From a virus (taxonomy: Duplodnaviria > Heunggongvirae > Uroviricota > Caudoviricetes): DNA of 64,000 bases. Location of the stretch: positions 94,501 to 158,500 of the IMG/VR virus record IMGVR_UViG_3300046000_008568, one strand, 5' to 3'. The translations under genes were made by a program, and so were the position numbers. This document shows, piece by piece, positions 9,316 to 46,980 of the stretch (the stretch's first letter is position 1; each line of letters opens with the position of its first letter). The notes under the pieces are model-generated. The model saw only the letters and a program-made list of their open reading frames with translations. It was not told the origin of the DNA and did not search any database.

Positions 9316-9316
9316 T

Positions 9317-10192: not shown

Positions 10193-10193
10193 T

Positions 10194-11159: not shown

Positions 11160-11160
11160 A

Positions 11161-11730: not shown

Positions 11731-11733
11731 TTT

Positions 11734-16599: not shown

Positions 16600-16683
16600 G
16601 GAAGGCATCCGGCAGGATCAGGAGCTGCTCTTGAAAAGCAGTAGCGGGTTAAACCGTTGTGAGTTCGAGTCTCACGCCTTCTT
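16600..16683 (+). tRNA. tRNA-Ser (anticodon TGA), class II
   Basis: Acceptor GGAAGGC/GCCTTCT; anticodon stem CTGCT/AGCAG with loop CTTGAAA; long variable arm; T-arm GTGAG-TTCGAGT-CTCAC. Confidence 0.6.
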
Positions 16684-16689
16684 CAATAT

Positions 16690-16761
16690 TGGTCTATGGT
16701 ATAACGGTTATTACACTTGACTTTGACTCAAGCAATCGTGGTTCGATTCCACGTAGACCAA
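16690..16761 (+). tRNA. tRNA-Gln (TTG)
   Basis: Acceptor TGGTCTA/TAGACCA; anticodon stem CTTGA/TCAAG with loop CTTTGAC; T-arm CGTGG-TTCGATT-CCACG. Confidence 0.6.
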
Positions 16762-16771
16762 CAAATAATTT

Positions 16772-16847
16772 CTGGATGTAGAGGAGCCCGGTTTATCTCG
16801 CTGGCCTTGGACGCTAGAGCACGCAGGTTCGAATCCTGCCATCCAGA
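16772..16847 (+). tRNA. tRNA-Pro (TGG)
   Basis: Acceptor CTGGATG/CATCCAG; anticodon stem CTGGC/GCTAG with loop CTTGGAC; T-arm GCAGG-TTCGAAT-CCTGC. Confidence 0.55.
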
Positions 16848-17048
16848 CTATAGACTGTTACTAATTCATAGATCACTGCCTAATAAGCACCGACGCATAG
16901 AATTAGATTTTGCCCTTTAGGCTTTAAAGTGAAGCACGATACTTTTAATATCGGGAAGTAGGAGCATTACCTACAAGGGGTACAAATTAGACTGTTAAGG
17001 TAGGACGTCAGTCAAAGAGAGGTGAGCCATACCTAAACCTCTTACCAG

Positions 17049-17119
17049 CCCCACATGGCGTAATGGTAGCGTGATTGTTTTACATGCAATAGGCGGTGGT
17101 TCGATTCCACCTGAGGGGA
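17049..17119 (+). tRNA. tRNA-Val (TAC)
   Basis: T-arm GGTGG-TTCGATT-CCACC; anticodon stem ATTGT/GCAAT with loop TTTACAT; acceptor has one mismatch. Confidence 0.5.
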
Positions 17120-17167
17120 CAATCAAGTGGTTATCACTAAACAATGGATTAAAAAGGAAGTGAATAA

Positions 17168-17238
17168 GGGGACAACAGGCAAGGTGCCGAGCAGCTCTGT
17201 AAAAGCTCACTGGGTAGGTTCGATTCCTACTGGCCCCA
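17168..17238 (+). tRNA. tRNA-Tyr (GTA), class-I-like
   Basis: T-arm GTAGG-TTCGATT-CCTAC; anticodon loop CTGTAAA; acceptor GGGGACA/TGGCCCC with one mismatch. Confidence 0.45.
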
Positions 17239-17301
17239 CAAAGTATGGAATAACATCGCTCCCGTAATGCCATGGCTCGTATACGAGTGACGGGAGACAA
17301 T

Positions 17302-17374
17302 GGACCTTTTGTATAGCTGGTGCGTACGCTAGTCTGAAGAACTAGAGGAGTAGGTTCGATTCCTACAGGGTCCA
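17302..17374 (+). tRNA. tRNA-Phe (GAA)
   Basis: Acceptor GGACCTT/AGGGTCC; anticodon stem CTAGT/ACTAG with loop CTGAAGA; T-arm GTAGG-TTCGATT-CCTAC. Confidence 0.65.
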
Positions 17375-17382
17375 CAATAAAT

Positions 17383-17457
17383 TGGTCTGAAGCTTAAGAG
17401 GTATATAGCGGAGGTTTGTTAAACCTAGGATAGCAGGTTCGAGTCCTGTCAGACCAG
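17383..17457 (+). tRNA. tRNA-Asn (GTT)
   Basis: Acceptor TGGTCTG/CAGACCA; anticodon loop TTGTTAA; T-arm GCAGG-TTCGAGT-CCTGT. Confidence 0.55.
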
Positions 17458-17464
17458 CAAAAAT

Positions 17465-17538
17465 AGGTAATTAGCTCAATTGGTTAGAGCACTCGCCTGA
17501 TACGTGAGAGGTTATAGGTTCGATTCCTATATTACCTA
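17465..17538 (+). tRNA. tRNA-Ile (GAT)
   Basis: Acceptor AGGTAAT/ATTACCT; D-arm GCTC..GAGC; anticodon stem CTCGC/GTGAG with loop CTGATAC; T-arm ATAGG-TTCGATT-CCTAT. Confidence 0.65.
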
Positions 17539-17544
17539 CAAAAT

Positions 17545-17629
17545 GGAAAGTAAATCAACATGGTGTTGAGTCCGCCTGCTAAGCGAGGCGTTCGGGTAAC
17601 CGGATTCAGTTCGATTCTGATTCTTTCCT
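17545..17629 (+). tRNA. tRNA-Ser-like (GCT), class II, imperfect
   Basis: 85 nt; anticodon loop CTGCTAA; long variable arm; T-loop TTCGATT; mismatches in the acceptor and T stems. Confidence 0.35.
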
Positions 17630-17920
17630 CTTTAAAAACCTGGTCCCTGTCCTCATAACGTGTTTAAGGAACACAGGAGTTGAATGTGCAATCGGGGCGG
17701 ATAGTGGTGGGACACTGATAAATAAAATCTTAAGCACAAAGATAAGTTAACGGGTTCTTATCAAACTACCGACTTGATCTAGGATCGAGAATATTTCATA
17801 AGTATTCCCAGACAAGAGCGTAACTTGTAGTCGGTACAATATGGTGTTCGAAGCTTTTTAGTGAAGCGCAAGACTGTGAATCTTGAGAAGATGGGGCGGT
17901 ACCGTTCTTACACCCAAAAT

Positions 17921-17994
17921 GCCCCTATGGTGAAACTGGTAAACACAACGGTTTTAAGCGCCGTAAGCTGTAGGTTCGAGTCCTACTGGGGGCA
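17921..17994 (+). tRNA. tRNA with anticodon TAA (Leu codon UUA) but a short variable arm
   Basis: Acceptor GCCCCTA/TGGGGGC; anticodon stem ACGGT/GCCGT with loop TTTAAGC; variable arm AAGCT (5 nt); T-arm GTAGG-TTCGAGT-CCTAC. Confidence 0.5.
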
Positions 17995-17999
17995 CAACT

Positions 18000-18071
18000 G
18001 GTCTTATAGTTTAATTGGAAAAACTTATCGCTACGAACGATAGAACGTAGGTTCGACTCCTACTAAGACCT
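18000..18071 (+). tRNA. tRNA-Arg (ACG)
   Basis: Acceptor GGTCTTA/TAAGACC; D-arm GTTT..AAAC; anticodon stem TATCG/CGATA with loop CTACGAA; T-arm GTAGG-TTCGACT-CCTAC. Confidence 0.65.
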
Positions 18072-18231
18072 CAAAATATAATTACAAAGCGTAGGTAAGA
18101 AGACGTGGAGAGACGTTGCGCAAGGGTACACACTAAGGATAAGTATTTATACTCAACTCTCTAATGGTGTGTGAAGCACTAAGAAATTAGAACCCAGATT
18201 CCTGATAAAACTTACTAATTATATTTTACTT

Positions 18232-18303
18232 GCCCGTATAGTTTAATTGGAAGAACTAAACGCTTCTAACGTTTCAGTCCTGGTTCAAGTCCAGGTATGG
18301 GTT
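18232..18303 (+). tRNA. tRNA-Arg (TCT)
   Basis: Anticodon stem AAACG/CGTTT with loop CTTCTAA; T-arm CCTGG-TTCAAGT-CCAGG; acceptor has two G-U pairs. Confidence 0.55.
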
Positions 18304-18310
18304 CAAAAAT

Positions 18311-18381
18311 GCGGGTCACAGACAAGGTGTCGGTACGGTCTCCAAAACTGCTACGGGTAAGTTCGATTCTTACGGCCTGCG
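18311..18381 (+). tRNA. tRNA-Trp-like (CCA), atypical D-arm
   Basis: Acceptor GCGGGTC/GGCCTGC with G-U pairs; T-arm GTAAG-TTCGATT-CTTAC; anticodon loop CTCCAAA; D-arm is irregular. Confidence 0.4.
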
Positions 18382-18447
18382 CAAAATTATTAATTATGAA
18401 AAAGAAATTCGATATGCATTAAGTTTATTAACTTAAAATGCATAAAA

Positions 18448-18630
18448 ATGAGAATCAAAAATCATACTCAGAAAGAGTATAAAAAAGAAAAAAGAAAACA
18501 ATCCAAAGATGGTGGAATGTGGTTTGAAGACTATTGGAGTAAATGTAAATCCGGAATATGGGCCTTCAAGTACAGAGAATACAGAACCTGGAAGTATAAC
18601 AGAAAAACACAATACAAACCTTTAAAATAA
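18448..18630 (+). CDS. small basic protein
   Basis: 60 aa, Lys/Arg/Tyr/Trp-rich; sits between the tRNA sub-arrays. Confidence 0.3.
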   Translation: MRIKNHTQKEYKKEKRKQSKDGGMWFEDYWSKCKSGIWAFKYREYRTWKYNRKTQYKPLK

Positions 18631-18636
18631 GTTATC

Positions 18637-19143
18637 ATGAGTAAGTACCAAAGAACACTGGTAATTGATTCAAGCTTTATGGCAAGATCCATTATCTCTA
18701 CCGAAAGAGCTTTCGTGATTTCGTATAAGGGTAATGCAGAAGTTATAGCTGAACATCCAGAAACATTCGGATTAGTAAATCCAAAACTAGAAATTTTTAA
18801 ACCTTCAATCATTAGGGTTTACAAATACGTAAAACAAAACATTCAAAAAGTTCCTCTAACAAGAGAGAATGTTTATCGAAGAGATAACTATGAATGTGTT
18901 TATTGTGGATCAAGTTATTTAAAATCACTAACTTTAGATCACGTTATTCCACAATCAAAAGGTGGAGCAAATGCTTGGGATAATTTAGTAACAGCATGTA
19001 GAAGTTGCAATTCACAAAAAGCAGATTTAACACTGGAGGAATATGGTAAAGAAATAGTAGAACCAAAAAGACCTCATTACTTAATGCTTATGAAACAACT
19101 AACATATGTTCCAAAAGAATGGGAAACATTTTTATTCTTTTAA
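18637..19143 (+). CDS. HNH homing-type endonuclease
   Basis: 168 aa; CVYCGSSY...LDHVIPQSKGG...WDNLVTACRSCNSQK is the classic HNH C-x2-C / H-N-H / C-x2-C pattern. Confidence 0.7.
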   Translation: MSKYQRTLVIDSSFMARSIISTERAFVISYKGNAEVIAEHPETFGLVNPKLEIFKPSIIRVYKYVKQNIQKVPLTRENVYRRDNYECVYCGSSYLKSLTLDHVIPQSKGGANAWDNLVTACRSCNSQKADLTLEEYGKEIVEPKRPHYLMLMKQLTYVPKEWETFLFF

Positions 19144-19190
19144 TTGGTTATTAAAAATATTGTTCGTATATTTAAGTATAATAAAGAGAT

Positions 19191-19376
19191 ATGAAAACCG
19201 AACAACAAATTAGAGAAAAGTACGAAGAGATGCTAAAGCATACAGAAGACTTGGATGATATGGTTCAAAACCCAAGTAAATATAGTGGTATTAATATTGA
19301 CAATATTCAAGATCATATAAAAGTAAGGGAAGAACAATATAAAATGAATACTCTGATTGAGTGGATTTTAAAATAA
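19191..19376 (+). CDS. hypothetical protein
   Basis: 61 aa ORF. Confidence 0.3.
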   Translation: MKTEQQIREKYEEMLKHTEDLDDMVQNPSKYSGINIDNIQDHIKVREEQYKMNTLIEWILK

Positions 19377-19453
19377 TAAATCACCTACTACATAACACGG
19401 CGCCAAATTAATTGTGACATGTACTGTCTGGAAGGTCAGGCTAGGTGATAAAT

Positions 19454-19523
19454 GGGCAGGATGGTTATGGAGACCGGCGGGATTGCAAACTCCGCAGAGT
19501 AAGTTCGATTCTTACCTTGCCCT
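19454..19523 (+). tRNA. tRNA-Cys (GCA)
   Basis: Acceptor GGGCAGG/CTTGCCC; anticodon loop TTGCAAA identical to canonical Cys; T-arm GTAAG-TTCGATT-CTTAC. Confidence 0.55.
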
Positions 19524-19618
19524 CATTTAAGGTTCGACCTTCTACCAAATGTGTTACACCCACAGATGGACATCGAGAGGGAGCTACCGATTGATAAGTG
19601 ACCGCACATGCGGTAAAT

Positions 19619-19692
19619 GCCCGAGTAGCCGAATTGGTATAGGCGCTAGACTTAGGATCTAGATTTTGCGAGTTCGAGTCTCGCCTTGGGTA
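19619..19692 (+). tRNA. tRNA with anticodon TAG (Leu codon CUA) but a short variable arm
   Basis: Anticodon stem CTAGA/TCTAG with loop CTTAGGA; variable arm ATTTT; T-arm GCGAG-TTCGAGT-CTCGC; acceptor GCCCGAG/CTTGGGT. Confidence 0.5.
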
Positions 19693-19851
19693 CGATAGTA
19701 GGACCGGGTTACCGGATATGGGTTCCTTAATTGGGCAGAAGGATTGGACGCCAAGCGCCTGGCCGCCTACAGATAAAATTAGAGTTAGCTTATAGTAAAG
19801 CAGCAGGGGCTAACCTGCAGAACGGATACGAAAACCGACTCTAATTTACTT

Positions 19852-19925
19852 GCTCTCGACGCACAAATGGTGGTGCACCGGATTTGTAACCCGGAATAGA
19901 GCCAGTTCGATCCTGGCCGAGAGCT
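19852..19925 (+). tRNA. tRNA-Thr (TGT)
   Basis: Acceptor GCTCTCG/CGAGAGC; D-arm GCAC..GTGC; anticodon loop TTTGTAA; T-arm GCCAG-TTCGATC-CTGGC. Confidence 0.6.
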
Positions 19926-19933
19926 CAATAATT

Positions 19934-20006
19934 GCGAATGTCGTATAACGGCTAATTATTCTTGACTTCCAATCAAGGGATGAGGGTTCGATTCCCTCCA
20001 TTCGCT
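19934..20006 (+). tRNA. tRNA-Gly (TCC)
   Basis: Acceptor GCGAATG/CATTCGC; anticodon stem CTTGA/TCAAG with loop CTTCCAA; T-arm GAGGG-TTCGATT-CCCTC. Confidence 0.65.
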
Positions 20007-20012
20007 CAAAAT

Positions 20013-20084
20013 GGCCCTATCGTCTATCGGTTAGGACACATGGTTTTCATCCATGAAAGTCGGGTTCGACTCCCGGTGGGGCTA
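20013..20084 (+). tRNA. tRNA-Glu (TTC)
   Basis: Anticodon stem CATGG/CCATG with loop TTTTCAT; T-arm TCGGG-TTCGACT-CCCGG. Confidence 0.6.
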
Positions 20085-20089
20085 CAATT

Positions 20090-20161
20090 GGGGCTATAGT
20101 ATAACGGCTATTACAATGGTTTTGCAAATCATAAATTGGAGTTCGATTCTCCATAGCTCCA
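20090..20161 (+). tRNA. tRNA-Ala (TGC)
   Basis: Acceptor GGGGCTA/TAGCTCC; anticodon stem ATGGT/ATCAT with loop TTTGCAA; T-arm TGGAG-TTCGATT-CTCCA. Confidence 0.6.
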
Positions 20162-20235
20162 CAAAATCGATCATAAGAGGATTGACCTATGAGGCTAATA
20201 GGTAAGTGATTGACAACTTGGAAAGACAGGTAACT

Positions 20236-20310
20236 GGTCCTATCGTTCAACGGCTAGGATGTAAGCTTGTCACGCTTATGATGAGGGTTCGATTCCCTCT
20301 AGGACCGCCA
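20236..20310 (+). tRNA. tRNA-Asp (GTC), with encoded 3' CCA
   Basis: Acceptor GGTCCTA/TAGGACC; anticodon stem TAAGC/GCTTA with loop TTGTCAC; T-arm GAGGG-TTCGATT-CCCTC; discriminator G followed by CCA. Confidence 0.65.
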
Positions 20311-20313
20311 TAT

Positions 20314-20387
20314 TGCGGGTTGGTAGAAGTTGGTATCTCGTGAGCCTCATAAGCTTAAGGTCGGGGGTTCGAGTCCCTCACCCGCTA
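20314..20387 (+). tRNA. tRNA-Met (CAT), with unpaired 1:72
   Basis: Anticodon stem TGAGC/GCTTA with loop CTCATAA; T-arm GGGGG-TTCGAGT-CCCTC; first acceptor base pair is a T-T mismatch. Confidence 0.5.
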
Positions 20388-20394
20388 CTAAATC

Positions 20395-20468
20395 GTCCTT
20401 TTAGCTCAGTTGGTCAGAGCAGCTCGCTCATAACGAGAAGGTCACAGGTTCGAGCCCTGTATAGGACA
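20395..20468 (+). tRNA. tRNA-Met or tRNA-Ile2 (CAT)
   Basis: D-arm GCTC-AGTTGGTCA-GAGC; anticodon loop CTCATAA; T-arm ACAGG-TTCGAGC-CCTGT. Confidence 0.55.
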
Positions 20469-20531
20469 CTAAATTTATTCAATATGAGGTCAATTCCTTC
20501 ATCTCCAATGTAGGTTAGCTATTGCTAACTT

Positions 20532-24146: not shown

Positions 24147-24863
24147 GTGAGAATAACAGTATTATCAGACACACATACAAGACATGGATTAATTCCTATG
24201 GAAGATCTACCAGGTGGAGATTTATTACTCCATGCTGGAGATTTAATGAACTCAGGGTATAATAAACATGATATTCATAGTTTCTGTACCTGGTTTCAAT
24301 CATTGAAACAATATGAAGATAAAGTATTCATAGCAGGTAATCACGATCGTTTATTTGAAAATGAACCACATGAAGTAGAAGGATACTTAAAAGATTATCC
24401 GCTAATCGATTACCTTCAAGATGCTGAGTTAGTTTTGTATGGAGATGGTCCAAATGGAGATATGCCTGAAAATAACATTCGCATTTACGGATCACCTTGG
24501 CAACCGGAATTCTATTCTTGGGCATTCAATTTACCAAAAAATGGAATTGAAATAGCAGGTAAGTGGGAAGGTATTCCTAACAACACAGACATTCTTATCA
24601 CACATGGTCCTGCATTTGGAACTTTAGATACAGTAGCAGGAAGACCTTGGGACGGATTAGGATGCGAGTTATTAGCTCAAAGAATTGAAGTCGTAAAACC
24701 AAAAATTCACATCTGTGGTCACATTCATTCAGGATATGGTTATGAGTTTAAAGATGGTACTCACTTCTTCAATGCATCAGTATTGGACGAGGCTTACGAA
24801 TACACTCAAAAACCAATGACGTTTGATTGGGATAAAGAAACAAATACAATAAATTTCATTTAA
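24147..24863 (+). CDS. calcineurin-like metallophosphoesterase
   Basis: GTG start; VLSDTH, GDL, GNHD, ITHGP, CGHIH metal-binding motifs. Confidence 0.6.
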   Translation: MRITVLSDTHTRHGLIPMEDLPGGDLLLHAGDLMNSGYNKHDIHSFCTWFQSLKQYEDKVFIAGNHDRLFENEPHEVEGYLKDYPLIDYLQDAELVLYGDGPNGDMPENNIRIYGSPWQPEFYSWAFNLPKNGIEIAGKWEGIPNNTDILITHGPAFGTLDTVAGRPWDGLGCELLAQRIEVVKPKIHICGHIHSGYGYEFKDGTHFFNASVLDEAYEYTQKPMTFDWDKETNTINFI

Positions 24864-26212: not shown

Positions 26213-27358
26213 ATGGAAAACAATAATTCAGTTTGCTTTATAGCAAAAATAAATGAAGTAAAAGCAATCGAAGGTGCTGATAACATCGAACTTGTAATCG
26301 CAGGTGGATGGAATGCTATCACTAGAAAAGGAGAATTTAAAGTAGGTGATGAGACAATCATTGCAACTACTGATGCAGTTATACCAGAAAAACTTTCTGA
26401 AGAAATGGGAGTTACTTCTTACCTAAGAAAAGGAGGTAGAGTAAGAACTGTAAAACTAAGAGGAGTTTATTCTGAATGTTTAATCATTCCAATGAAATAC
26501 CTTAGTGGTAAAACCACTATGGGTGACTTTGATTTGAAAGAAGGAAGCGACTGTATGGAGTTCTTAGGAATTATCAAATACGAACCACCAGTTAAACAAA
26601 TTCAACTTGCTTCAGGTAGAAAGATTAAATGGAGAGACAATCAGAACTTCCATATCTATTACAAATTCCCAAACCTTAAAAACGTTGAAGGAATGTTTAC
26701 ACCAGAAGATACAGTAGAGATTTCTCGTAAGATTCATGGTACAAATGCTAGATACGGTATTGTAAAAAAATCTAAATTGTCATTCTGGGATAAAGTAAAA
26801 AAATTCTTTAGACTAGCTGATAAGTGGATTGACTATGAATACATTTACGGTTCACATAATTGTGAGAAAGGATCTGACTCTCAAGGATTTTATTCTGAAG
26901 ATGTTTGGAAAACAATAGCTGAGAAGTATGATATTAAAGCTAAGCTTTGGGATGAAGTTAAAAATGGAGTAGCTAGTCTTGTAGATATTGGAAGTGGATT
27001 TGTAATCTATGGAGAAATTTATGGAGCAGGTATTCAAAAGAACTATGACTATGGATTAGATGATATTAGATTTATAGGATTTGATACAACTATTAGAGGT
27101 GCTTACAACTCACCAGCTGGTACTTTCGGTACATTTCATTCACTAGACTTACCTTATATTGAAGTACTTTATTTTGGACTTTGGAATCAAGAAGTACAGG
27201 ATAGGTTTACATTTAACAACTTCATTGAAGGAACAAAAGTACCACATGAAGGAATTGTAATTAAACATTCATCAGGTGATAGAAAGAAAGTAGCAAAGGT
27301 AATCAATCCCGACTATTTGATCTACGGAGAGAAGAATGATGTAGGAGATTCACATTAA
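26213..27358 (+). CDS. Rnl2-family RNA ligase
   Basis: RKIHGTN (motif I, cf. T4 Rnl2 EKIHGTN), IYGEIYGAGIQKNYDY (cf. T4 VFGEFAGPGIQKNVDY), EGIVIK, KVINPDY. Confidence 0.75.
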   Translation: MENNNSVCFIAKINEVKAIEGADNIELVIAGGWNAITRKGEFKVGDETIIATTDAVIPEKLSEEMGVTSYLRKGGRVRTVKLRGVYSECLIIPMKYLSGKTTMGDFDLKEGSDCMEFLGIIKYEPPVKQIQLASGRKIKWRDNQNFHIYYKFPNLKNVEGMFTPEDTVEISRKIHGTNARYGIVKKSKLSFWDKVKKFFRLADKWIDYEYIYGSHNCEKGSDSQGFYSEDVWKTIAEKYDIKAKLWDEVKNGVASLVDIGSGFVIYGEIYGAGIQKNYDYGLDDIRFIGFDTTIRGAYNSPAGTFGTFHSLDLPYIEVLYFGLWNQEVQDRFTFNNFIEGTKVPHEGIVIKHSSGDRKKVAKVINPDYLIYGEKNDVGDSH

Positions 27359-35949: not shown

Positions 35950-36700
35950 TTTTTTTTGTTTAACGCATTGTTTTTTTGTTGTACACAACGCCATGTATAA
36001 TTGGAGTTCATTGAAACTATCGCGTATTTTTGCGCAATAAACGCGGTTTTTTTGTTGCTTAAGCAGTATAGTAACGTTTGTAGAACAAGACGCAAGTAGG
36101 TCAAACAGTTTGTGTGGTAATGGTTTTTTTGTAACAAATGCATTATAGTATATGGAATGCTATATAATAATGGGTATTGTGGTTTGTTGTGTAGGGGCAA
36201 ATCCCCGCCCCGCTCCGTCCCGTTTCCTTCGAAACCAAAACGTATATACAACGTTTCGTAACGCTTTGTTCAATATTTGTGCGATGTTTTGTTGTTTTAT
36301 TGCAGTATCCTCAGTCGCCACACGCGGAAGGAATTCTCATTCACAATGAAGTGGCGATTTTGTTGTGAACAATGCAATTTCGGCGACAAATTTGGTTACC
36401 TCAAGTTTTTTTTGTATATTATATTAAACATAAAATAAATTTTATATGCCTATTATCGTACCGTTTCCCGTTTATGGATTGCTTTTTGGAATACAATATG
36501 TCGCTGGCGACGTAGATGAGAATTTTGATCTAGACGACGACGTCCACATGGTCCAAATTGCACTTGGTTTTTTTGGTTTATCCATTATGTGGTAAGACCG
36601 TAGTGTTTTTTTTTTGTTCACAACTTTTTTTGCTAGAAATTTGGCTACGTTATTTTTGTGTCGTAATTTTATAGCAGAGTTAAAATAAACAAATATTAAC
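35950..36700. other. 750-bp non-coding region with iterated T7-8G(T) tracts and CACAA/TTGTG inverted repeats
   Basis: At least eight TTTTTTTGT copies, some after short hairpins (e.g. CGCGT...ACGCG at 36026-36055); the track ORFs in this region are short with odd composition. Confidence 0.4.
36661..36686 (+). promoter_or_regulatory. conserved early promoter cassette, copy 4
   Basis: TCGTAATTTTATAGCAGAGTTAAAAT + AAAGGTTATG. Confidence 0.5.
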
Positions 36701-36716: not shown

Positions 36717-37040
36717 ATGACACGTAATGAAATCATTGCAACAGTAAAAGAAATGGGTATCAAAACGCAACGCCCAGCACATCAAATGAAAACAGAAGCT
36801 CTTCAAGCGCTGTTAGACGCCCACACAAGCGAGACAAAAGCTCGTGGACGTAAAATTAATTTGGGTAGCGCCCGCCAAGCCAGATTAGCTGCCAGAGCGG
36901 CTCTTGAGCTAGAGGGACCAGTCCAAAAAGGCCGACGCGTCAATACAGCTAGTGCTCGTCAACAACGATTAGCTGCTTTTGAGGCACGCAAGGCGAATGG
37001 TGAGACCATCAAGCGAGGAAGACCGGCTCTGGCAATGTAA
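36717..37040 (+). CDS. basic protein with SAP/Rho_N-like N-terminus and internal repeats
   Basis: 107 aa; two copies of (K/R)GR(K/R)xNxxSARQxRLAAxxA; higher GC than its neighbours. Confidence 0.45.
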   Translation: MTRNEIIATVKEMGIKTQRPAHQMKTEALQALLDAHTSETKARGRKINLGSARQARLAARAALELEGPVQKGRRVNTASARQQRLAAFEARKANGETIKRGRPALAM

Positions 37041-38549: not shown

Positions 38550-39110
38550 ATGAAAACATTAGTTATACACCCTAAAGACAAATCAACTGATTTCCTCAAG
38601 CCAATCTACGCCGGCCTAGATGAGGTCACTCTAGTGACTGGGGGCCTGAACCAAGAAGATATACTTCAGGCAATCCAGACGCACGATCAAGTGATGATGA
38701 TGGGGCATGGGAGTCCAAGCGGGTTGTTTGCCGTGGGGCAATTTCCATTCGCCCGGCCCTATTCGGGCTATGTGATCGGGGCTGATCTAGTTGAGGCGCT
38801 GAGCCAGAAGGACAACAACATTTTTATCTGGTGTAACGCAGACCAGTTTGTCAACCGACATGAGCTCAAGGGCTTCTATAGCGGGATGTTTGTCTCTGAG
38901 ACCGGCGAGGCTTTTTATTGCGGCGTCAAGACATTTGATCAGGTGTCCGTAACCGAATCGAATGACACGTTCGCCCGCCTGCTCGGGGAGTGTCTTCAGG
39001 CCACGCGCGCGCCAGAAGAGATCCACAGCCAGATAAAAGAACAGTATGGCTCTCTAGCCGGCACTAACCTTATAGCGGCATATAATCATCAACGTCTTTA
39101 TTTGAATTAA
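38550..39110 (+). CDS. GC-rich (about 50%) horizontally acquired gene of unknown function
   Basis: 186 aa from the ATG at 38550 (the track start at 38541 is TTG); uses GGG/GCC/CGC codons rare elsewhere in the window; flanked by cassette promoter 7 and a normal terminator. Confidence 0.5.
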   Translation: MKTLVIHPKDKSTDFLKPIYAGLDEVTLVTGGLNQEDILQAIQTHDQVMMMGHGSPSGLFAVGQFPFARPYSGYVIGADLVEALSQKDNNIFIWCNADQFVNRHELKGFYSGMFVSETGEAFYCGVKTFDQVSVTESNDTFARLLGECLQATRAPEEIHSQIKEQYGSLAGTNLIAAYNHQRLYLN

Positions 39111-39189: not shown

Positions 39190-39429
39190 ATGTTAAAATT
39201 TAAAGAAAATGTTTATGGTTTTGTTTATGATTCAAGTATTGGTAGTGTAAAGAAAATTTACAATAGACAATTAACTGAAGATGAAATAGAATTAATAAAT
39301 GAAGTAATTAGTGAAGATGATGTTTTACTTACAAACATTGAAGATGTAAGAGAATTATTTGAAATAACATCTAAAGAACATTTAACAAGTGATGAAGAAG
39401 GTTTAAATGAAGTATTTGATTTTGTTTAA
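39190..39429 (+). CDS. acidic hypothetical protein
   Basis: 79 aa. Confidence 0.4.
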   Translation: MLKFKENVYGFVYDSSIGSVKKIYNRQLTEDEIELINEVISEDDVLLTNIEDVRELFEITSKEHLTSDEEGLNEVFDFV

Positions 39430-40596: not shown

Positions 40597-40803
40597 ATGA
40601 AGTACAAGACATTTATTACATTTTTGATCGTCTGGATCGCTGAGAATCTGGCGGTGCCATTTTGGGTGGTAGGGCATGTCCATCTTACAATGAACATTTA
40701 TAAGGACATTCATGAGGTGATTGCCTCATTTGGGATGAACATTATAGTGCTTATAGGGATATGGCTTGGGTGGAAAAAAAATTTAAAAGAAAATGAAAAA
40801 TAA
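40597..40803 (+). CDS. small membrane protein
   Basis: ATG at 40597 (MKYKTFITFLIVWIAENL...), 2 TM helices. Confidence 0.35.
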   Translation: MKYKTFITFLIVWIAENLAVPFWVVGHVHLTMNIYKDIHEVIASFGMNIIVLIGIWLGWKKNLKENEK

Positions 40804-40833
40804 TTATAATAATGTTTGGTTATATTATGTTTA

Positions 40834-40863
40834 GTTTATATCTTTATATAAGAGTTAAAAACA
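40834..40863 (+). promoter_or_regulatory. conserved early promoter cassette, copy 11
   Basis: GTTTATATCTTTATATAAGAGTTAAAAACA + AAGGTTATG. Confidence 0.45.
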
Positions 40864-40890
40864 ACAATTAATAATTAAAAAATTAAGGTT

Positions 40891-41196
40891 ATGGAAATTA
40901 AATTAATGAATTTTACAGACAATTTAAACGATGTTAATAAATTTAACAGTAAAAAGTTTAATTGTGAAATTGACGATGCAGTAAATAATGTTTACTGTTG
41001 TGAGTTACAATTAAAAGATTGTGATGGTAGCTGTTTAGAGAGTATATTAGCTGATATAGTTTATAGTGAGTTAAGTTGTATAGTTGTTATAAATAATAAT
41101 GATCATTATACTGTAAATAATGATAATGATCGTGATAATGTTTATAATGAAATTAAATTAAAATATAATTTAACTGATTTGGAAATTTGGAGTTAA
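40891..41196 (+). CDS. Asn/Asp-rich hypothetical protein
   Basis: 101 aa, very C-poor coding sequence. Confidence 0.4.
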   Translation: MEIKLMNFTDNLNDVNKFNSKKFNCEIDDAVNNVYCCELQLKDCDGSCLESILADIVYSELSCIVVINNNDHYTVNNDNDRDNVYNEIKLKYNLTDLEIWS

Positions 41197-41210
41197 AAAT
41201 AATAAAAATT

Positions 41211-41236
41211 AAAGACTCTTAATTGAGTCTTTTTTA
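41211..41236 (+). terminator. rho-independent terminator (AGACTCTTAATTGAGTCT family)
   Basis: Same hairpin followed by a T-run. Confidence 0.6.
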
Positions 41237-41325
41237 ATCTATATTAACCCAAAGCTATATTTAGTTATTTAGAATGAATATAAATGGTAAAATAATTGTA
41301 AATATATTTTGTTATGTTGTGTTTT

Positions 41326-41352
41326 ATTATTATCTTTATAGTGTTAAAATAA
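41326..41352 (+). promoter_or_regulatory. early promoter cassette, C-depleted variant (copy 12)
   Basis: TTATTATCTTTATAGTGTTAAAATAA + AAGGTTATG. Confidence 0.4.
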
Positions 41353-41376
41353 ATAATTAATTAAAAAATTAAGGTT

Positions 41377-41616
41377 ATGAAAAAATTAAGTTTTGGGTTT
41401 TGCTTTTATGGTAGTAAAAAAGGTTTAAAAGATTGTGAGAAATGTGAGAATGTTTTATTAGAAAATAATATTGAATTTGAAAGAAATGATAGAATGTATA
41501 ATTTTAAAAGTTTCTTTAAAAGTAAAGATTTATTAAATGATAAAATTAATAATGTTAGAAATTTAATGTTAGAAAATGATATAATAAAATATGTTATTTT
41601 TGAGGGTGAGAAATAA
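41377..41616 (+). CDS. hypothetical protein lacking Ala/Thr/Pro/His/Gln
   Basis: 79 aa; only 2-3 cytosines in the gene. Confidence 0.4.
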   Translation: MKKLSFGFCFYGSKKGLKDCEKCENVLLENNIEFERNDRMYNFKSFFKSKDLLNDKINNVRNLMLENDIIKYVIFEGEK

Positions 41617-41652
41617 ATAAATTAAAATAAGGTTGGAGGTGTAAGCCTCCTT

Positions 41653-41680
41653 CCTTAATTTTATATCAGAGTTTAAAACA
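41653..41680 (+). promoter_or_regulatory. conserved early promoter cassette, copy 13
   Basis: CCTTAATTTTATATCAGAGTTTAAAACA preceded by a GGAGG-TGTAA-GCCTCC hairpin. Confidence 0.4.
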
Positions 41681-41705
41681 ACAATTAATAATTAAAATTA
41701 AAGTT

Positions 41706-41906
41706 ATGAAAAATTATTTAGTAATTAGTATTGAAGACGTAAATGACACTTTTGAAGTTAATGATTTAGATGAATTAATTAAAGATATGTACTCACAAGA
41801 ATTATTTGATGGTTCATTTGAAACAGTTAAAAAGTGGTTTTTTAATAATTACAATGTTTATGAAAGTGAAAGTGAAATTAAATTATTAAAATTAGAAGAC
41901 TCTTAA
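41706..41906 (+). CDS. acidic hypothetical protein
   Basis: 66 aa. Confidence 0.4.
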   Translation: MKNYLVISIEDVNDTFEVNDLDELIKDMYSQELFDGSFETVKKWFFNNYNVYESESEIKLLKLEDS

Positions 41907-41920
41907 TTGAGTCTTTTTTT
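41896..41920 (+). terminator. rho-independent terminator (AGACTCTTAATTGAGTCT family)
   Basis: Same hairpin followed by T7G. Confidence 0.6.
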
Positions 41921-41974
41921 GTCTAATAATATATTAAAAATATTTTGTGATTTGTTTGTTTATATGGAATTAAT

Positions 41975-42000
41975 ATGTTAATTTTATAGTGTTAAAATAA
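41975..42000 (+). promoter_or_regulatory. early promoter cassette, C-free variant (copy 14)
   Basis: ATGTTAATTTTATAGTGTTAAAATAA. Confidence 0.4.
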
Positions 42001-42027
42001 TTAAATAATAATTAAAAAATTAGTGTT

Positions 42028-42444
42028 ATGGAAAAGTATTTAGGTAAAATGTTAGGTAAAGAAGTTAAGTTAGAATTAGAGAATGTTTATGAGAAGTATT
42101 GTTGGAATGATTTAGGTGTTGGGGATGATAGTAGAATGGATAGAGATGAGTGGAGTAAAATGTTGGAGAAGTTTGTTGATTTTAGATTATATGTTAGTGG
42201 GGGAAGGTATGGTTGTAGTATGGGAAGTGTTGGTTGTGAGAGTGTAAGTGGGTTTTTAAATGAGATATTTTTATTTGATAATATGATGTGTGATTGGGGT
42301 GGGTGTTATAGAGGTGATTTTAGTTATGAGTGTTTAGATGGGTTAATTGAATTATTAAATGAAAGTAGTTTAAGTGATGATATTAAGGAGATGATAATTG
42401 ATGGGTATAAAGAAGAGAATGGATTAAATGATGATGAAGAATAA
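42028..42444 (+). CDS. hypothetical protein encoded without any C-containing codon
   Basis: 138 aa with no Ala, Thr, Pro, His or Gln; Gly/Asp/Glu/Cys-rich. Confidence 0.45.
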   Translation: MEKYLGKMLGKEVKLELENVYEKYCWNDLGVGDDSRMDRDEWSKMLEKFVDFRLYVSGGRYGCSMGSVGCESVSGFLNEIFLFDNMMCDWGGCYRGDFSYECLDGLIELLNESSLSDDIKEMIIDGYKEENGLNDDEE

Positions 42445-42520
42445 AAATAAATAATGTAAGTATAAATGATGAAATAGTTTGAAAATAATTTATATTTAGT
42501 TAGGTTATGTTGAATTAAAG

Positions 42521-42547
42521 TTGTAATTTTATAGTGTTAAAAAATAA
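42521..42547 (+). promoter_or_regulatory. early promoter cassette, C-free variant (copy 15)
   Basis: TTGTAATTTTATAGTGTTAAAAAATAA. Confidence 0.4.
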
Positions 42548-42572
42548 TATTAATAATTAAAAATTAGAAAAA

Positions 42573-42824
42573 ATGGAAGAAATTTTAATTGATTTATTTG
42601 GTTGTGGAAATGATAATGAGTATGAAAGTGGAGAAAGAGTTGAATGTTTATTTGAAGATGAGGAGTATAATGATAGAGAAAATTATGATGATGAGTTTGT
42701 AGATGATTGGATTGAGTTAAAGAATAGGTTAAAAAATGGAATGATTGTAAATAAAGAATTTAATGGTGATATTAATTTTGAATTAGTAGGTGAAGATATA
42801 TTAATGTGGTTTATAGAAGAATAA
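42573..42824 (+). CDS. acidic hypothetical protein encoded without any C-containing codon
   Basis: 83 aa with no Ala/Thr/Pro/His/Gln. Confidence 0.45.
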   Translation: MEEILIDLFGCGNDNEYESGERVECLFEDEEYNDRENYDDEFVDDWIELKNRLKNGMIVNKEFNGDINFELVGEDILMWFIEE

Positions 42825-42895
42825 TTTAGTATAAGTATAAATGATGAAATAGTTTGAAAATAATTTATATTTAGTTTGGTTTATAGATTTATAGT

Positions 42896-42924
42896 TTGTA
42901 ATTTTATATCTGAGTTTAAAACAA
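42896..42924 (+). promoter_or_regulatory. conserved early promoter cassette, copy 16
   Basis: TTTGTAATTTTATATCTGAGTTTAAAACA. Confidence 0.45.
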
Positions 42925-42951
42925 CAATTAACAATTAAAACAATTAAAATT

Positions 42952-45959: not shown

Positions 45960-46241
45960 ATGATTACCTTTATTATTATATTAATCCTTTTAGCAGGTGT
46001 ATTAGGTTATACTTCCTATAACTTATTTAAAAAAGTAGAGACACTAGAGAAAATGGTTGATGGTCAAGATAGATACATCCAACAGTTTTCTAATGCTGTT
46101 GACGTTACTAATAGAAGATTGGGAGAAATTGATGACAAGGGAACATTTCAATCTGATGATGAAATAGGATGGTTTTTCGAAAGCATTAAAACACTTCAGA
46201 ATGAACTAAACGACTTTAACCTTAATGGAACTAGAAACTAA
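45960..46241 (+). CDS. membrane-anchored protein
   Basis: 93 aa with an N-terminal TM helix. Confidence 0.4.
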   Translation: MITFIIILILLAGVLGYTSYNLFKKVETLEKMVDGQDRYIQQFSNAVDVTNRRLGEIDDKGTFQSDDEIGWFFESIKTLQNELNDFNLNGTRN

Positions 46242-46980
46242 TATACCCGTTATCGAGCTGACCAAATCTGGTCAGCCTCGTAAACGTAAACCCAAAACAT
46301 CCAATACTTACTTTACTGAAGATACTCAAAATGCTATTTTAGAATATGTGGCTTCAACTAACCAGGACTTTAGAGATAAGGTGTATCGTGAGCGTATAGA
46401 ATATGGGTTCTTTAAATTAACACAAAATATCATACATACTTTTAAGTTTTACTATACTGATGGTGAATCTATAGAAGATGTGCAGCAGGAAGTAATTGCT
46501 TTTTTACTTGAAAAACTTAGATTATATAAACCGGAGAAAGGTAAAGCATATTCCTATTTTGGAACCATTACTAAACGTTATTTAATTCTTAAAAATAAGA
46601 AAAATTATCAAAAACTTCAAAACAAAGGTGACTTACTTGAAGTAGATGAGGATAAAACTATTAAAGAAGAAATTATAAACGATTATTACGGTAAAGATTA
46701 TAGCGTAAGTGAATTTATGGGTTTGTATATCAAATATATTGATAAACATCTTAATAGATTATTTCCTAAAGACCTTGATGCTAAAACAGCAGACGCTATT
46801 GTTGAACTGTTTCGTAAATGTGAATCGCTAGATATATTTAATAAAAAAGCACTTTACATATACATCCGTGAAATAGTAGATGTCGATACTCCCCAGATCA
46901 CTAAAATTATCAAAAAATTAAAAGTCACTTACGTTGAGCTATACAGCCAGTATTATTCAGACGGATATGTAAGAATATAG
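46225..46980 (+). CDS. late-transcription sigma factor, T4 gp55-like
   Basis: KGKAYSYFGTITKRY parallels the gp55 KKYSYFVHNVY core; it sits directly upstream of the baseplate genes. Confidence 0.45.
   Translation: MELETNIPVIELTKSGQPRKRKPKTSNTYFTEDTQNAILEYVASTNQDFRDKVYRERIEYGFFKLTQNIIHTFKFYYTDGESIEDVQQEVIAFLLEKLRLYKPEKGKAYSYFGTITKRYLILKNKKNYQKLQNKGDLLEVDEDKTIKEEIINDYYGKDYSVSEFMGLYIKYIDKHLNRLFPKDLDAKTADAIVELFRKCESLDIFNKKALYIYIREIVDVDTPQITKIIKKLKVTYVELYSQYYSDGYVRI

Follow-up and report, generated by a model that had tools for sequence, protein, structure and literature searches.

Two protein-coding cassettes without cytosine on the sense strand in a relative of Flavobacterium phage immuto

What would keep one of the four bases out of nearly a kilobase of protein-coding phage DNA? 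The question is raised by a stretch of 64,000 nt (hereafter the window) from a tailed-phage contig, in which base counting of the + strand revealed no C over the 986 nt from 41924 to 42909 (A 378, T 377, G 231); since the sense strand has no C, the transcribed strand has no G. With a window content of 14.4% C, about 142 C would be expected in 986 nt (log10 P = -66.6). A preliminary description, made from the sequence alone, had correctly reported the zero and excluded chance; its figures of roughly 10% C nearby and about 100 expected C were too low, and the exclusion of chance holds even when C is set at 10% (log10 P = -45). The run was 7.5 times longer than the next-longest C-free run in the window (131 nt), and the other long runs (131, 110, 78, 76 and 68 nt) all fell within 40766-41645, the sole long one elsewhere being 79 nt at 12438-12516. 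The longest runs in the window without A, G and T were 30, 53 and 34 nt, respectively. The flank at 40766-41923, also described earlier as C-depleted, contained 4.3% C.

The identical C-free sequence was present in at least 8 independent assemblies from JGI and Logan, derived from different samples, and the sequencing or assembly artefact against which the preliminary description had advised a check is thereby ruled out. A negative control of 1.01 Mb, made up of AT-rich viral contigs unrelated to the window, had a single run of at least 150 nt without C or G, and it belonged to a relative of the window phage (L079). This control consisted of the contigs matched when viral contigs were scanned with a 15-mer promoter variant described below, 117 of the 118 matches being unrelated; as a finder of relatives the scan was too unspecific, yet it yielded L079. 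No nucleotide match to the window was found among known phages.

Organization of the C-free segment

The C-free segment and its neighbors are arranged as follows, "early" being used here in a predicted sense.

39190..39429, + strand: outlying C-depleted early ORF, 79 aa, 4.6% C; four normal-C ORFs lie between it and the block
40891..41196, + strand: C-depleted early ORF, 101 aa, 4.6% C, with a normal promoter-like motif and a G-C hairpin terminator (41211-41232)
41335..41616, + strand: neighboring cassette with motif TTTATAGTGTTAAAA (41335-41349) and a 79-aa ORF (41377-41616) having only 2 C (0.8%)
41706..41906, + strand: C-depleted early ORF, 66 aa, 5.5% C; its terminator (41894-41917) is the 5′ edge of the C-free segment
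41924..42909, + strand: C-free segment of two complete expression cassettes, beginning directly behind the T-tract of the preceding terminator (last C, 41923)
41983..41997, + strand: C-free promoter-like motif TTTATAGTGTTAAAA, a 15-mer, of cassette 1
42028..42444, + strand: C-free ORF, 138 aa, acidic, predicted five-helix bundle
42457..42562, + strand: C-free spacer, the first of two copies of a repeat (about 110 nt, core GATGAAATAGTTTGAAAATAATTTATATTTAG), holding the second promoter-like motif and no G-C hairpin terminator
42528..42542, + strand: C-free promoter-like motif TTTATAGTGTTAAAA, a 15-mer, of cassette 2
42573..42824, + strand: C-free ORF, 83 aa, very acidic
42832..42940, + strand: copy 2 of the spacer repeat, extending into a C-containing promoter-like motif (42903-42920)
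42910, + strand: 3′ limit of the C-free segment, the first C of the following cassette's promoter-like motif

The motif TTTATAGTGTTAAAA, at 41335, 41983 and 42528, precedes exactly the three most C-poor ORFs. The preliminary description had noted a C-free promoter variant, which is real, and had regarded it as a C-to-T shifted form; compared with the normal form TTTATAnnnGAGTTAAAA, however, it is 3 nt shorter and no pure C-to-T copy. The normal form had 20 matches vs 4.3 expected. A sigma-70 promoter scan of this AT-rich DNA gave 30 candidates vs 24 expected in shuffled background and thus did not exceed it. Position and repetition suggest that the motifs act as promoters, and from the same sequences putative transcription start sites and an early timing may be assigned to the cassettes.

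Absence of C was not limited to the ORFs. Leaders of the C-free cassettes had 0% C vs 7.9% in normal cassettes, and the spacer that separates the promoter-like motif from the terminator before it had no C in the window phage and in four relatives (L009, L079, L016 and L010), vs about 13% in normal cassettes. Consensus promoter Cs were substituted in those cassettes that are depleted most; promoter-like motifs inside C-free polycistrons lose their Cs, whereas those preceded by a terminator often retain them. Downstream of the stop codon, Cs return in the terminator hairpins. It was also noticed that depleted and normal-C genes are interleaved. The terminator at 41894-41917 folded with z = -5.1; no intrinsic terminator was found within the C-free segment, and a C-free terminator sought in the 3′ repeat gave no significant fold (z = -0.2). 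The two spacer-repeat copies are 84.8% identical, and recombination between them accounts for a natural variant (L005) without cassette 2. The C-free mRNAs were predicted to be the least structured of the region (-0.08 and -0.11 kcal/mol per nt vs -0.12 to -0.28). In an Rfam scan, tRNAs were the sole matches in the window, and 35.8-43.8 kb gave none at E <= 1.

Both ORFs are intact, and the residues they use are exactly the 15 amino acids having C-free codons; the lack of Ala, Thr, Pro, His and Gln stated in the preliminary description was seen in the 138-aa as well as the 83-aa ORF. The probability of these five being absent was 1e-15 for the former and 1e-9 for the latter, and that of all remaining codons being C-free, given the protein, was 1e-14 and 1e-5.5, respectively. 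Neither ORF had a significant match in Pfam, PHROGs or solved folds of known function, and no protein homologue of the 138-aa ORF was found in deposited phage genomes. The 83-aa protein had nine homologues of 70-93% identity, all without the same five amino acids. In depleted genes, Glu (1.85-fold), Asp (1.47-fold), Cys (2.4-fold) and also Met were enriched, and the residues expected as deamination products were at 1.26-fold (Val), 1.02-fold (Ile) and 1.07-fold (Tyr).

Conservation of the C-free state among relatives

Homologues of both proteins, with 45-93% identity, were found in other phages within C-free runs of 477-977 nt; around those at 45-76% identity the runs measured 650, 577, 977, 477 and 757 nt. 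At synonymous sites of the C-free homologues, A and G differed in 166 of 518 comparisons (32%), whereas T and C differed in none of 540. Since A/G have diverged at synonymous sites while T/C never differ, these comparisons indicate that the C-free state of both genes and their counterparts has been kept by long-term purifying selection. Two origins had been offered in the preliminary description. The first, C-to-T hypermutation of one strand, does not agree with a C-free state found in homologues as distant as about 45% protein identity, with the T/C count or with the kinds of substitution: differences from relatives were not exclusively C-to-T as it would predict, and where relatives hold a C-containing codon, others show Gly, Ser, Lys, Val, Tyr or Asn codons and not solely the T-for-C product. 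The second, taken in the general form of selection for a C-free unit, is favored by the contrast between the T/C and A/G sites. Related phages having normal C content with the same proteins had been named as the observation that would speak against the idea, and the opposite was found, the homologues being C-free or nearly so. In depleted ORFs, about half of the lost C was replaced by G, which rose as much as T (about 7 points). At synonymous sites, however, compensation by G varied between homologues (0.05-0.52) and is no general feature.

The surroundings of the C-free genes were conserved as well. The exact 15-mer TTTATAGTGTTAAAA also precedes C-free genes in L009 and L079, a C-free variant TTTATAATGTTAAAA precedes the C-free gene in L010, and the spacer-repeat element lies 3′ of the C-free genes in all three. 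In L079, an unrelated C-free protein of 134 aa occupies the same slot, with the same promoter variant and 3′ element. Conversely, an RGRP-repeat protein is encoded with 24% C in the window phage vs 5.6% in L022. Homologues of the neighboring ORFs were also low in C: 1.9% for that of 40891..41196 (L024), 1.0% for that of 41706..41906 (L015), and 2.9% and 3.7% for those of 39190..39429 (L015 and L024, respectively). A homologue in L012 was C-depleted though inside a C-containing operon; the contig of this weakly depleted type of phage was recovered no further than 10 kb either side. Comparison of these genomes showed that the C-free trait is a property of the cassette and of particular gene families, not of a genome region, and that it is graded (0-6% C) across the early-gene block in related phages. 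Translational selection is ruled out by reasoning on tRNA decoding: NNC and NNT codons are read by the same G34 tRNAs, and the remaining Asp, Asn and Tyr codons need tRNAs that are attacked by the anticodon nucleases we are aware of. In the literature searched, genes that naturally do without C were not found described.

Guanine modification and possible causes of C loss

Among cultured phages, Flavobacterium phage immuto is the closest to the window phage: the two baseplate wedge proteins share 42% identity over 100% of the length, and the gene order GroES/GroEL, sugar cluster, DUF932, small early genes and baseplate is common to both; the C-free region lies mid-genome, in synteny with immuto. 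With Cpn60 at only about 57% identity and a polymerase of family B, not A, sequence comparison places the window phage in a sister clade of immuto, not in the same genus. The host is probably Flavobacterium. Immuto encodes FolE, QueC, QueD, QueE, QueF and DpdA, and all dG in its DNA is replaced by fdPreQ1 (PMC10516641); by members of the DpdA family in immuto, phiST and CP220, every genomic G is replaced by a 7-deazaguanine derivative. Contig L148 is 100% identical to window positions 1-4709, and L318, which is 97.3% identical to L148 over 5.9 kb, carries QueD, DpdA, QueC, QueE and FolE. Its FolE, QueD, QueE and QueC are 62-95% identical to the immuto proteins, and its DpdA (2034-2819) aligns end to end, at 33% identity, with DpdA3 of immuto and the CP220 group and has matches in DpdA3-family phages alone. 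These similarities show that a strain of the window phage (97% identical, L318) encodes preQ0 genes and a DpdA3-like, predicted DNA-guanine transglycosylase; replacement of G in the window phage itself is putative, the complete replacement having been measured in immuto. A G-free template and 7-deazaguanine machinery in one phage open a reading at the level of DNA. The link proposed between C-free genes and G modification stems from two rare features being found together in one clade.

We tentatively propose, giving it somewhat less than an even chance, that the C-free cassettes are pioneer genes whose template strand is free of the modified base. In an injected genome they would be the only genes with a template of canonical bases alone, so that host RNA polymerase could transcribe them at once and completely even where modified G in the template is a liability. 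The liability may be 1) a modification-dependent host defence that nicks or excises the modified base, given that a lesion stops RNA polymerase when it lies in the template strand but not when it lies in the other, or 2) stalling of an unadapted polymerase at a bulky 7-substituted deazaguanine. The small acidic products would then lift the block for the remaining genome. Start (ATG) and stop codons between them use A, T and G, which leaves C as the sole base that a coding strand can spare; thus only a G-modifying phage could build a gene with an unmodified template, which would explain why the trick is seen here. Stated more broadly, and again as a tentative notion, the cassettes may be natural three-letter genes, i.e. 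the only genes readable from a wholly unmodified template or, equivalently, the only messages needing no CTP.

Several observations touch on this template reading. At the DNA level, the C-free pre-promoter spacers, the substituted promoter Cs, a purge of C that depends on context and gp143 of immuto hint in its direction; gp143 has 1.4% C vs 8-14% in the other early genes of immuto. Against it, Gs of the sense strand, which would be modified too, persist in the promoter-like motifs. We know of no defence that damages only the strand bearing 7-deazaG, and GrwAB is a type IV enzyme acting on double strands. In vitro, 7-vinyl, 7-ethynyl and 7-phenyl-7-deazaG block the RNA polymerases of E. coli and B. 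subtilis, whereas unsubstituted and 7-methyl deazaG are tolerated, the reported inhibition being mainly at initiation (PMC4838386). A GmrSD-like system restricts 7-deazaG phages, with escapers mapping to dpdA (PMC12137116). No C-free genes were found in Cellulophaga phage phiST (100% dDG) or, over 200 kb scanned, in a CP220-group Campylobacter phage of the dADG-modified clade. Since these phages and most immuto early genes are without the trait, an intrinsic block of transcription by the modification alone is unlikely, and a lineage-specific host factor must be assumed.

A second explanation, the main rival, which we consider only a little less probable, places the selection on RNA: the transcript must hold no C, so that it could be made without CTP and would be immune to chain-terminating CTP analogues (ddhCTP from prokaryotic viperins), to CTP shortage and to C-requiring endoribonucleases (toxins of the MazF, ChpBK and MqsR type, some Cas13b or HEPN collateral RNases), and its products would be countermeasures still makeable when all other messages are truncated or cut. 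A cost per C accounts for both the strict zeros and the graded depletion. It also fits with the C-free leaders, with the return of Cs in hairpins past the stop codon, where they would be harmless, and with the loss of Cs from motifs within polycistrons but often not from those behind a terminator. Pressure by RNA-targeting defences is suggested by the RNA ligase, phosphoesterase and 19 tRNAs that the phage encodes, and a precedent exists in engineered systems, in which ACA-less mRNAs escape MazF (PMC9102682). On the other hand, C is also missing from promoter positions ahead of the start and from 60-100 nt of spacer that is apparently not transcribed, the L012 homologue is depleted despite its C-containing operon, and it is left without an account why the trait was seen only in a G-replacing clade. 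Examination of the residual Cs in partly depleted neighbors and relatives revealed over-representation of ACA (1.72-fold), ACT (2.41-fold) and TAC (1.38-fold), with Cs purged hardest beside G; on the template, GT is tolerated and GC and CG are purged. A chain terminator predicts no such variation with the neighboring base. ACA and UAC being the best tolerated is contrary to common MazF specificities, so that avoidance of these sites is ruled out, and the escape from ACA- or UAC-specific MazF-type RNases suggested in the preliminary description is not supported. Bacterial viperins, moreover, often make ddhUTP and ddhGTP too, and phages using the host polymerase may be poor targets.

It is improbable, in our judgement, that mutation erased the Cs and that selection merely preserves what the proteins tolerate, the candidates being a host cytidine deaminase acting on ssDNA or RNA, or transcription-associated deamination of the exposed non-template strand in heavily transcribed early genes. 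Such a strand-specific C-to-T process would agree with the graded depletion being confined to early cassettes with strong promoter-like motifs, with the gain in T and with a general excess of G over C on the sense strand of early genes. It would have to bring C below about 0.5% at synonymous Y sites vs 20% in neighbors with the same promoter a few hundred bases off, for which we estimate that the local rate must rise at least 25- to 75-fold, and to do so where depleted and normal genes alternate. Half of the lost C went to G, enrichment is seen for Glu, Asp and Cys and not for Val, Ile, Leu and Tyr, the C-containing columns show more than simple C/T changes, and five amino acids are wholly gone from conserved, foldable proteins.

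There is similarly little likelihood that the benefit lies in a weakly structured, Rho-proof RNA, which would have neither G-C pairs nor YC dinucleotides for Rho loading and would combine escape from Rho-dependent termination of poorly translated foreign transcripts with efficient translation in a Bacteroidota host, where start regions need to be unstructured. The low predicted structure of the C-free mRNAs, the lack of intrinsic terminators inside the segment, the gradation over early genes and the probable Flavobacterium host are in line with it. However, the last 1-2% of C need not go for this purpose, and still several lineages have stretches of 477-986 nt with strictly no C; the apparently untranscribed spacers are C-free as well, and C is at normal levels in other early cassettes that share the promoter-like motif.

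Least probable of all is that the DNA is restriction-proof, all G on one strand leaving no G:C palindromic site and no site with G and C on the same strand so that an anti-restriction gene would be uncuttable before expression: promoter, spacers and ORFs are all affected as this would require, the products are small and acidic like Ocr and ArdA-like DNA mimics, and GC and CG are the dinucleotides purged most strongly, but protecting 1 kb leaves a 150-kb genome cuttable elsewhere, that genome is probably already shielded by modification from G-recognising enzymes, the mid-genome position syntenic with immuto gives no sign of first entry, and observed/expected G/C-containing palindromes were 0.81 in both low-C and normal genes, extra palindrome avoidance thus not being seen in the partly depleted genes.

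Protein-coding genes kept by selection without one of the four bases, across divergent phages, represent a constraint on gene sequence that we did not find described in the literature, and suggest that a hazard tied to a single base can suffice to remove five amino acids from a protein family. Composition alone flags a small set of orphan early proteins which the phage would have to make under the worst conditions, and which are prime candidates for new anti-defence or host-takeover factors. If the proposal of pioneer genes on an unmodified template is true, the cassettes may be the first sign of a gene-expression cost of genome-wide guanine replacement, or of a dedicated host counter-measure to it; a host activity disabling 7-deazaguanine templates, or polymerase stalling on them, would form a new layer of the arms race, and counter-defence genes would be findable from base composition alone. 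A cultured system is at hand in Flavobacterium sp. LMO8 and phage immuto with its low-C gp143. For engineering, C-free cassettes might offer expression in the absence of CTP or resistance to C-dependent nucleases.

Comparison with known systems

Small, very acidic early inhibitors that act before a host enzyme destroys a modified genome include Ugi of PBS2, directed against uracil-DNA glycosylase, and Arn and IPI* of T4, directed against McrBC and GmrSD. By analogy, it is possible that the 138-aa and 83-aa products play such a role; the known inhibitors, however, are encoded with ordinary base composition, and no sequence or fold similarity between them and the two proteins was found. Phages also avoid restriction sites and palindromes and have site-free leading regions, as in the gene 0.3 region of T7 and the first-step-transfer DNA of T5. 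There too, DNA composition is edited, in early genes foremost, to deny host enzymes a target, but that avoidance is normally site-specific, whereas the C-free cassettes ban one base from one strand and are without additional palindrome avoidance. Footprints of the APOBEC type in eukaryotic viruses resemble the cassettes in strand-specific loss of viral C; they are partial, tied to motifs and biased to the T product, whereas the loss in the cassettes is total, conserved at synonymous sites over deep divergence, and offset by G and acidic residues.

The enzyme family and pathway of DpdA-dependent 7-deazaguanine modification (Hutinet 2019, PMC6884629; Cui 2023, PMC10516641) are the same as those in the 97%-identical strain. 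These studies deal with chemistry and protection, the modification being understood as protection from restriction (PMC6884629, PMC10516641); neither an effect on gene composition nor strand-asymmetric, modification-free genes were found in them, and phiST and the CP220 group, though fully modified, differ in lacking the C-free trait. Closer in principle are the ACA-less mRNAs used with MazF (PMC9102682), from which the target is removed by synonymous recoding so that a protein is made while other mRNAs are destroyed. These are man-made, lose one trinucleotide and keep all 20 amino acids, whereas the phage cassettes are natural and conserved, lose a whole nucleotide and five amino acids, include their non-coding flanks and have ACA as the best-tolerated context. 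Finally, by the principle of nucleotide omission, a template can be transcribed to its end with one NTP absent (PMC8969151). Synthetic G-less and C-less cassettes share with the segment described here this capacity for full transcription without one NTP, but they are non-coding laboratory constructs, whereas the phage cassettes are natural and encode proteins.

The cytosine-free segment and its cassettes

The + strand was found to contain no cytosine (C) from 41924 to 42909, as the preliminary description had claimed, the 986 nt consisting of 378 A, 377 T and 231 G. At the window's C content of 14.4%, a run of this length would arise with a probability of about 1e-67; the maximum runs without A, G and T are 30, 53 and 34 nt, respectively. 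The C-free runs that rank next in the window are 131, 110, 79, 78, 76 and 68 nt long, and all but one lie directly upstream of the segment, within 40766-41645. An artefact was rejected because the identical run was recovered in JGI and Logan assemblies of several samples, and the C-free run is thus confirmed. Among unrelated AT-rich viral contigs totalling 1.01 Mb, the sole run of at least 150 nt without C or G came from a relative of the window phage. The segment carries two open reading frames (ORFs), both intact as had been stated:

42028-42444, + strand, ORF of 138 aa
42573-42824, + strand, ORF of 83 aa

The residues of each are exactly the 15 with C-free codons, in agreement with the reduced alphabet described earlier. 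With the phage's own codon usage as baseline, the probability of having no Ala, Thr, Pro, His and Gln is 1e-15 for the 138-aa ORF and 1e-9 for the 83-aa ORF, and that of having no C-containing synonymous codons among the remaining residues is 1e-14 and 1e-5.5, respectively. Four adjacent early ORFs contain 0.8-5.5% C, versus 12-16% in the ORFs interleaved with them.

The region of about 36.7-43.1 kb is a string of small one-gene cassettes, in which a repeated promoter-like motif (TTTATAnnnGAGTTAAAA; 20 matches versus 4.3 expected) is followed by a leader that is rich in A and ends in AAGGTTATG, then by a short ORF and in most cases by a G-C hairpin terminator. A C-free motif variant three bases shorter, TTTATAGTGTTAAAA, precedes the three most C-poor ORFs (41377, 42028 and 42573), whose leaders have T in place of the normal C (AACAACAATT to AATAATTAAAT). 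Both strictly C-free cassettes lack the hairpin terminator, and 3' of each is a conserved C-free spacer with a predicted structure that is not significant. The segment begins 1 base past the T-tract of the upstream terminator and stops at the first C of the next promoter-like motif. Its complementary strand, which is the one read by RNA polymerase, has no G and is therefore unable to start an ORF. In a natural variant (contig L005, Logan SRR35487087, compared with window 42457-42940) the 83-aa cassette is missing, and the deletion end points fall in two copies of a 110-nt spacer repeat. Recombination between the two repeats accounts for this loss, which shows that such exchange between conserved flanks adds and removes cassettes.

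It was also noticed that a basic repeat protein (RGRP-x-N-x-x-S-x-RQ-x-R repeats) at 36717-37040 is encoded by unusually G+C-rich DNA (49% G+C, 24% C). A relative in a related phage (L022:297-620) has only 5.6% C versus 24% in the window, and the pair provides a natural test of the effect of C depletion on one protein family. A 186-aa ORF at 38550-39110 (50% G+C and 24% C, in a 32% G+C genome) has its own cassette promoter-like motif and no Pfam or PHROG match; it may be a recent acquisition.

Downstream of the C-free cassettes, and separated from them by a single small gene, lies a G+C-rich (49%) non-coding element in this AT-rich genome (43224-43662), with 74-76% identity to two related contigs (L010:1150-1615 and L079 minus strand 967-1379). 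Its core, GCGCTAGCGCTGCGCGCGCGCTGCGACGGCGAAATGGCCCCACGGTAATTGCGGTCCATCGACGCTGCGCTA, is nearly invariant and is followed by a G-poor, C-rich stretch; it had no Rfam match, and its predicted structure has little covariation support, from three sequences only. The element may serve as a structured RNA, as an origin of replication or as a packaging signal, and would be the most densely modified spot if the genome is G-replaced. A second non-coding stretch (35950-36700), which borders the series of early cassettes on its upstream side, contains long T-runs and only spurious short ORFs, with no Rfam match and no detected similarity to the 43.2-kb element.

Elsewhere in the window, a cluster of 18-19 tRNA genes, a calcineurin-like phosphoesterase and a T4-Rnl-like RNA ligase (PHROG 968, E = 1.6e-50) were located (16600-20469, 24198-24863, 26213-27358). 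Taken together, these genes resemble a kit for repairing RNA and replacing tRNAs, and suggest RNA-cutting defences in the host. A 12-kb sugar-nucleotide/glycosyltransferase cluster (198-12774), syntenic with 49-60 kb of phage immuto, encodes GDP-mannose 4,6-dehydratase, two DegT-type aminotransferases, GT1 and GT2 transferases, an acetyltransferase and a methyltransferase; its targets may be DNA, the virion or the host surface. Directly upstream of the baseplate genes, a 251-aa ORF (46225-46980) without a PHROGs match contains the motif KAYSYFGTITKRYL, which, judged by eye, resembles sigma-factor region 2, and the product may be a late sigma factor.

Homologues and distribution of cytosine depletion

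The 138-aa protein has 26 close homologues, within a wider family of 42 cluster representatives, and many homologues are wholly without Ala, Thr, Pro, His and Gln. C-free runs around them measure 650 nt in L009 (66% identity), 577 nt in L010 and L011 (58%), 977 nt in L016 (49%), 477 nt in L025, and 757 and 490 nt in L022, all contigs of related phages; the remaining homologue genes recoverable as DNA have 1-13 Cs. Likewise, 9 of 9 homologues of the 83-aa protein are without the five residues. At positions of conserved amino acid among seven C-free homologues, a difference is seen in 166 of 518 pairwise comparisons (32%) of two-fold A/G sites and in 0 of 540 of two-fold T/C sites, indicating that the lineages are old enough for synonymous turnover and that C was excluded throughout. 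In columns where one relative has a C-containing codon, the others use codons for Gly, Ser, Lys, Val, Tyr or Asn, not merely the T-for-C product. T and G make up for the lost C about equally in depleted genes, and the residues enriched (Glu 1.85x, Asp 1.47x, Cys 2.4x, Met 1.55x) differ from those that deamination would yield (Val, Ile, Leu and Tyr). The C-to-T hypermutation proposed earlier is thus contradicted by homologues that are C-free or nearly so at 45-76% identity, by the invariant T/C sites and by the mixed substitutions, and these comparisons argue that the C-free state is kept by selection. A purely mutational bias is regarded as untenable, as it would need an at least 25- to 75-fold excess over neighbours a few hundred bases away, and neighbours with normal C have the same kind of promoter-like motif.

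In L079, the same promoter variant and 3' spacer flank an unrelated 134-aa protein, with a C-free run of 628 nt. L015 has 14 small genes of 0.3-5% C in a 4-kb block, similar blocks are present in L016, L020, L022 and L024, and several phages have depleted homologues of window ORFs 39190, 40891 and 41706. The trait is thus a property of a cassette and of a set of gene families. Since one family can be C-rich in one phage and C-poor in another, as the RGRP-repeat protein is (24% C in the window, 5.6% in L022), the strength of the pressure varies by lineage, as expected of something host-dependent. The proteins are orphans belonging to no Pfam or PHROG family. The 138-aa protein, predicted to be a five-helix bundle (confident model, pLDDT 82), had no informative neighbour in a structure search and no homologue among deposited phage genomes.

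In the cultured Flavobacterium phage immuto, the early gene gp143 (NC_055915.1 68330-68686; L146:28331-28687) has 5 C in 357 nt (1.4%). Its product begins MKKYLKVD, its family is also depleted in L015 and L022, and it offers a ready experimental handle. Window-wide and in the immuto early region, the sense strand of early genes has about 21% G versus 12.6% C, and late structural genes have about 15-17% of each, with no skew; the extreme C-free cassettes may lie at the far end of a gradient of early-gene skew.

Guanine modification and the exclusion of cytosine

The nearest cultured relative is Flavobacterium phage vB_FspM_immuto, whose baseplate wedge protein shows 42% identity along its full length and whose genes follow the same order (GroES/GroEL, sugar cluster, DUF932, small early genes, baseplate). 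Immuto encodes FolE, QueC, QueD, QueE, QueF-like, formyltransferase and DpdA, and its DNA has 7-(formylamino)methyl-7-deazaguanine in place of every dG, complete replacement being a property of the DpdA3 subfamily (PMC10516641). The window stops short of the corresponding part of the genome; its positions 1-4709 are 100% identical to contig L148, which overlaps L230/L318 at 97.3% identity over 5.9 kb. Modification genes, including QueD, DpdA, QueC, QueE and FolE upstream of the polymerase, sit on L318 about 17-25 kb upstream of window position 1:

L318 (IMGVR_UViG_3300024346_008111; 97%-identical strain) 1106-10387, QueD, DpdA3-like transglycosylase, QueC, QueE, FolE and phosphoribosyltransferase

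The DpdA of L318 matched solely DpdA3-family phages. Judging from these genes, G is very probably replaced in the genome of the window phage or of a strain with 97% identity to it. Neither QueF nor a formyltransferase was detected in the examined part of L318, so the final modification may differ from the fdPreQ1 of immuto.

We tentatively favour the explanation that the C-free cassettes are pioneer genes with a modification-free template. A sense strand without C is a template strand without G, and these cassettes would be the only genes in the injected genome with a template entirely of canonical bases. As C is the only base dispensable to a coding strand, genes of this kind are open only to phages that modify G. 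It is plausible that modified G carries a cost: bacterial RNA polymerases are blocked in vitro by mid-sized 7-substituents on 7-deazaG (PMC4838386), and 7-deazaG phages are restricted by a GmrSD-like system, with escape via dpdA mutations (PMC12137116). C is missing from the whole spacer, from upstream terminator to promoter-like motif, in five lineages, and also from consensus promoter positions, which fits a requirement at the DNA level. No depleted genes were found in Cellulophaga phage phiST (all G replaced by 7-deazaguanine) or in a CP220-group Campylobacter phage of the dADG-modified clade, and gp143 is the sole strongly depleted gene of immuto. Complete replacement of G is thus not sufficient for the trait, so that an additional lineage-specific factor must be assumed, and no factor is known to damage only the strand bearing the modified base.

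The main rival, which we regard as only somewhat less probable, is that the transcript itself must contain no C. Such a message would need no CTP, would be uncut by RNases requiring C and would not be terminated by ddhCTP from viperins. This explanation is built on known host weapons and accounts for the C-free leaders and for the Cs tolerated in terminators; however, it gives no account of the apparently untranscribed C-free flanks, of the context dependence of C loss or of its confinement to a G-modifying clade. In 51 depleted genes, residual Cs are spread evenly along the ORFs, yet are over-represented after A (ACA 1.7x, ACT 2.4x, TAC 1.4x, GAC 3.6x) and under-represented beside G or C; at synonymous third positions, C is retained at 0.15-0.46 of its level in normal genes when it follows A, at 0.06-0.11 when it follows T and at 0-0.11 when it follows G. 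The enrichment in ACA and TAC speaks against the escape from ACA- or UAC-specific MazF-type toxins suggested in the preliminary description. Whether modification-free template or C-free message, the shared logic is that of pioneer genes immune to a base-specific block.

The remaining probability is shared by mutational bias, effects of Rho or of structure, avoidance of restriction, and causes not thought of. The C-free messages have the lowest predicted structure in the region, but neither weak structure nor Rho invisibility demands removal of the last Cs. Depleted genes avoid G/C-containing palindromes no more than normal genes do (0.81 for each), so restriction-site avoidance has left no particular mark. 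Translational selection was ruled out on reasoning, since NNC and NNT codons are read by the same tRNAs.

The papers on 7-deazaguanine (PMC10516641, PMC12137116) do not mention a compositional consequence for genes. The literature on genes free of or poor in cytosine, on CTP depletion, on strategies against viperins and on ACA-less messages, covered incompletely, yielded only ACA-less mRNAs made by engineering and nucleotide-omission cassettes for laboratory use; within that coverage, natural C-free genes are not described.
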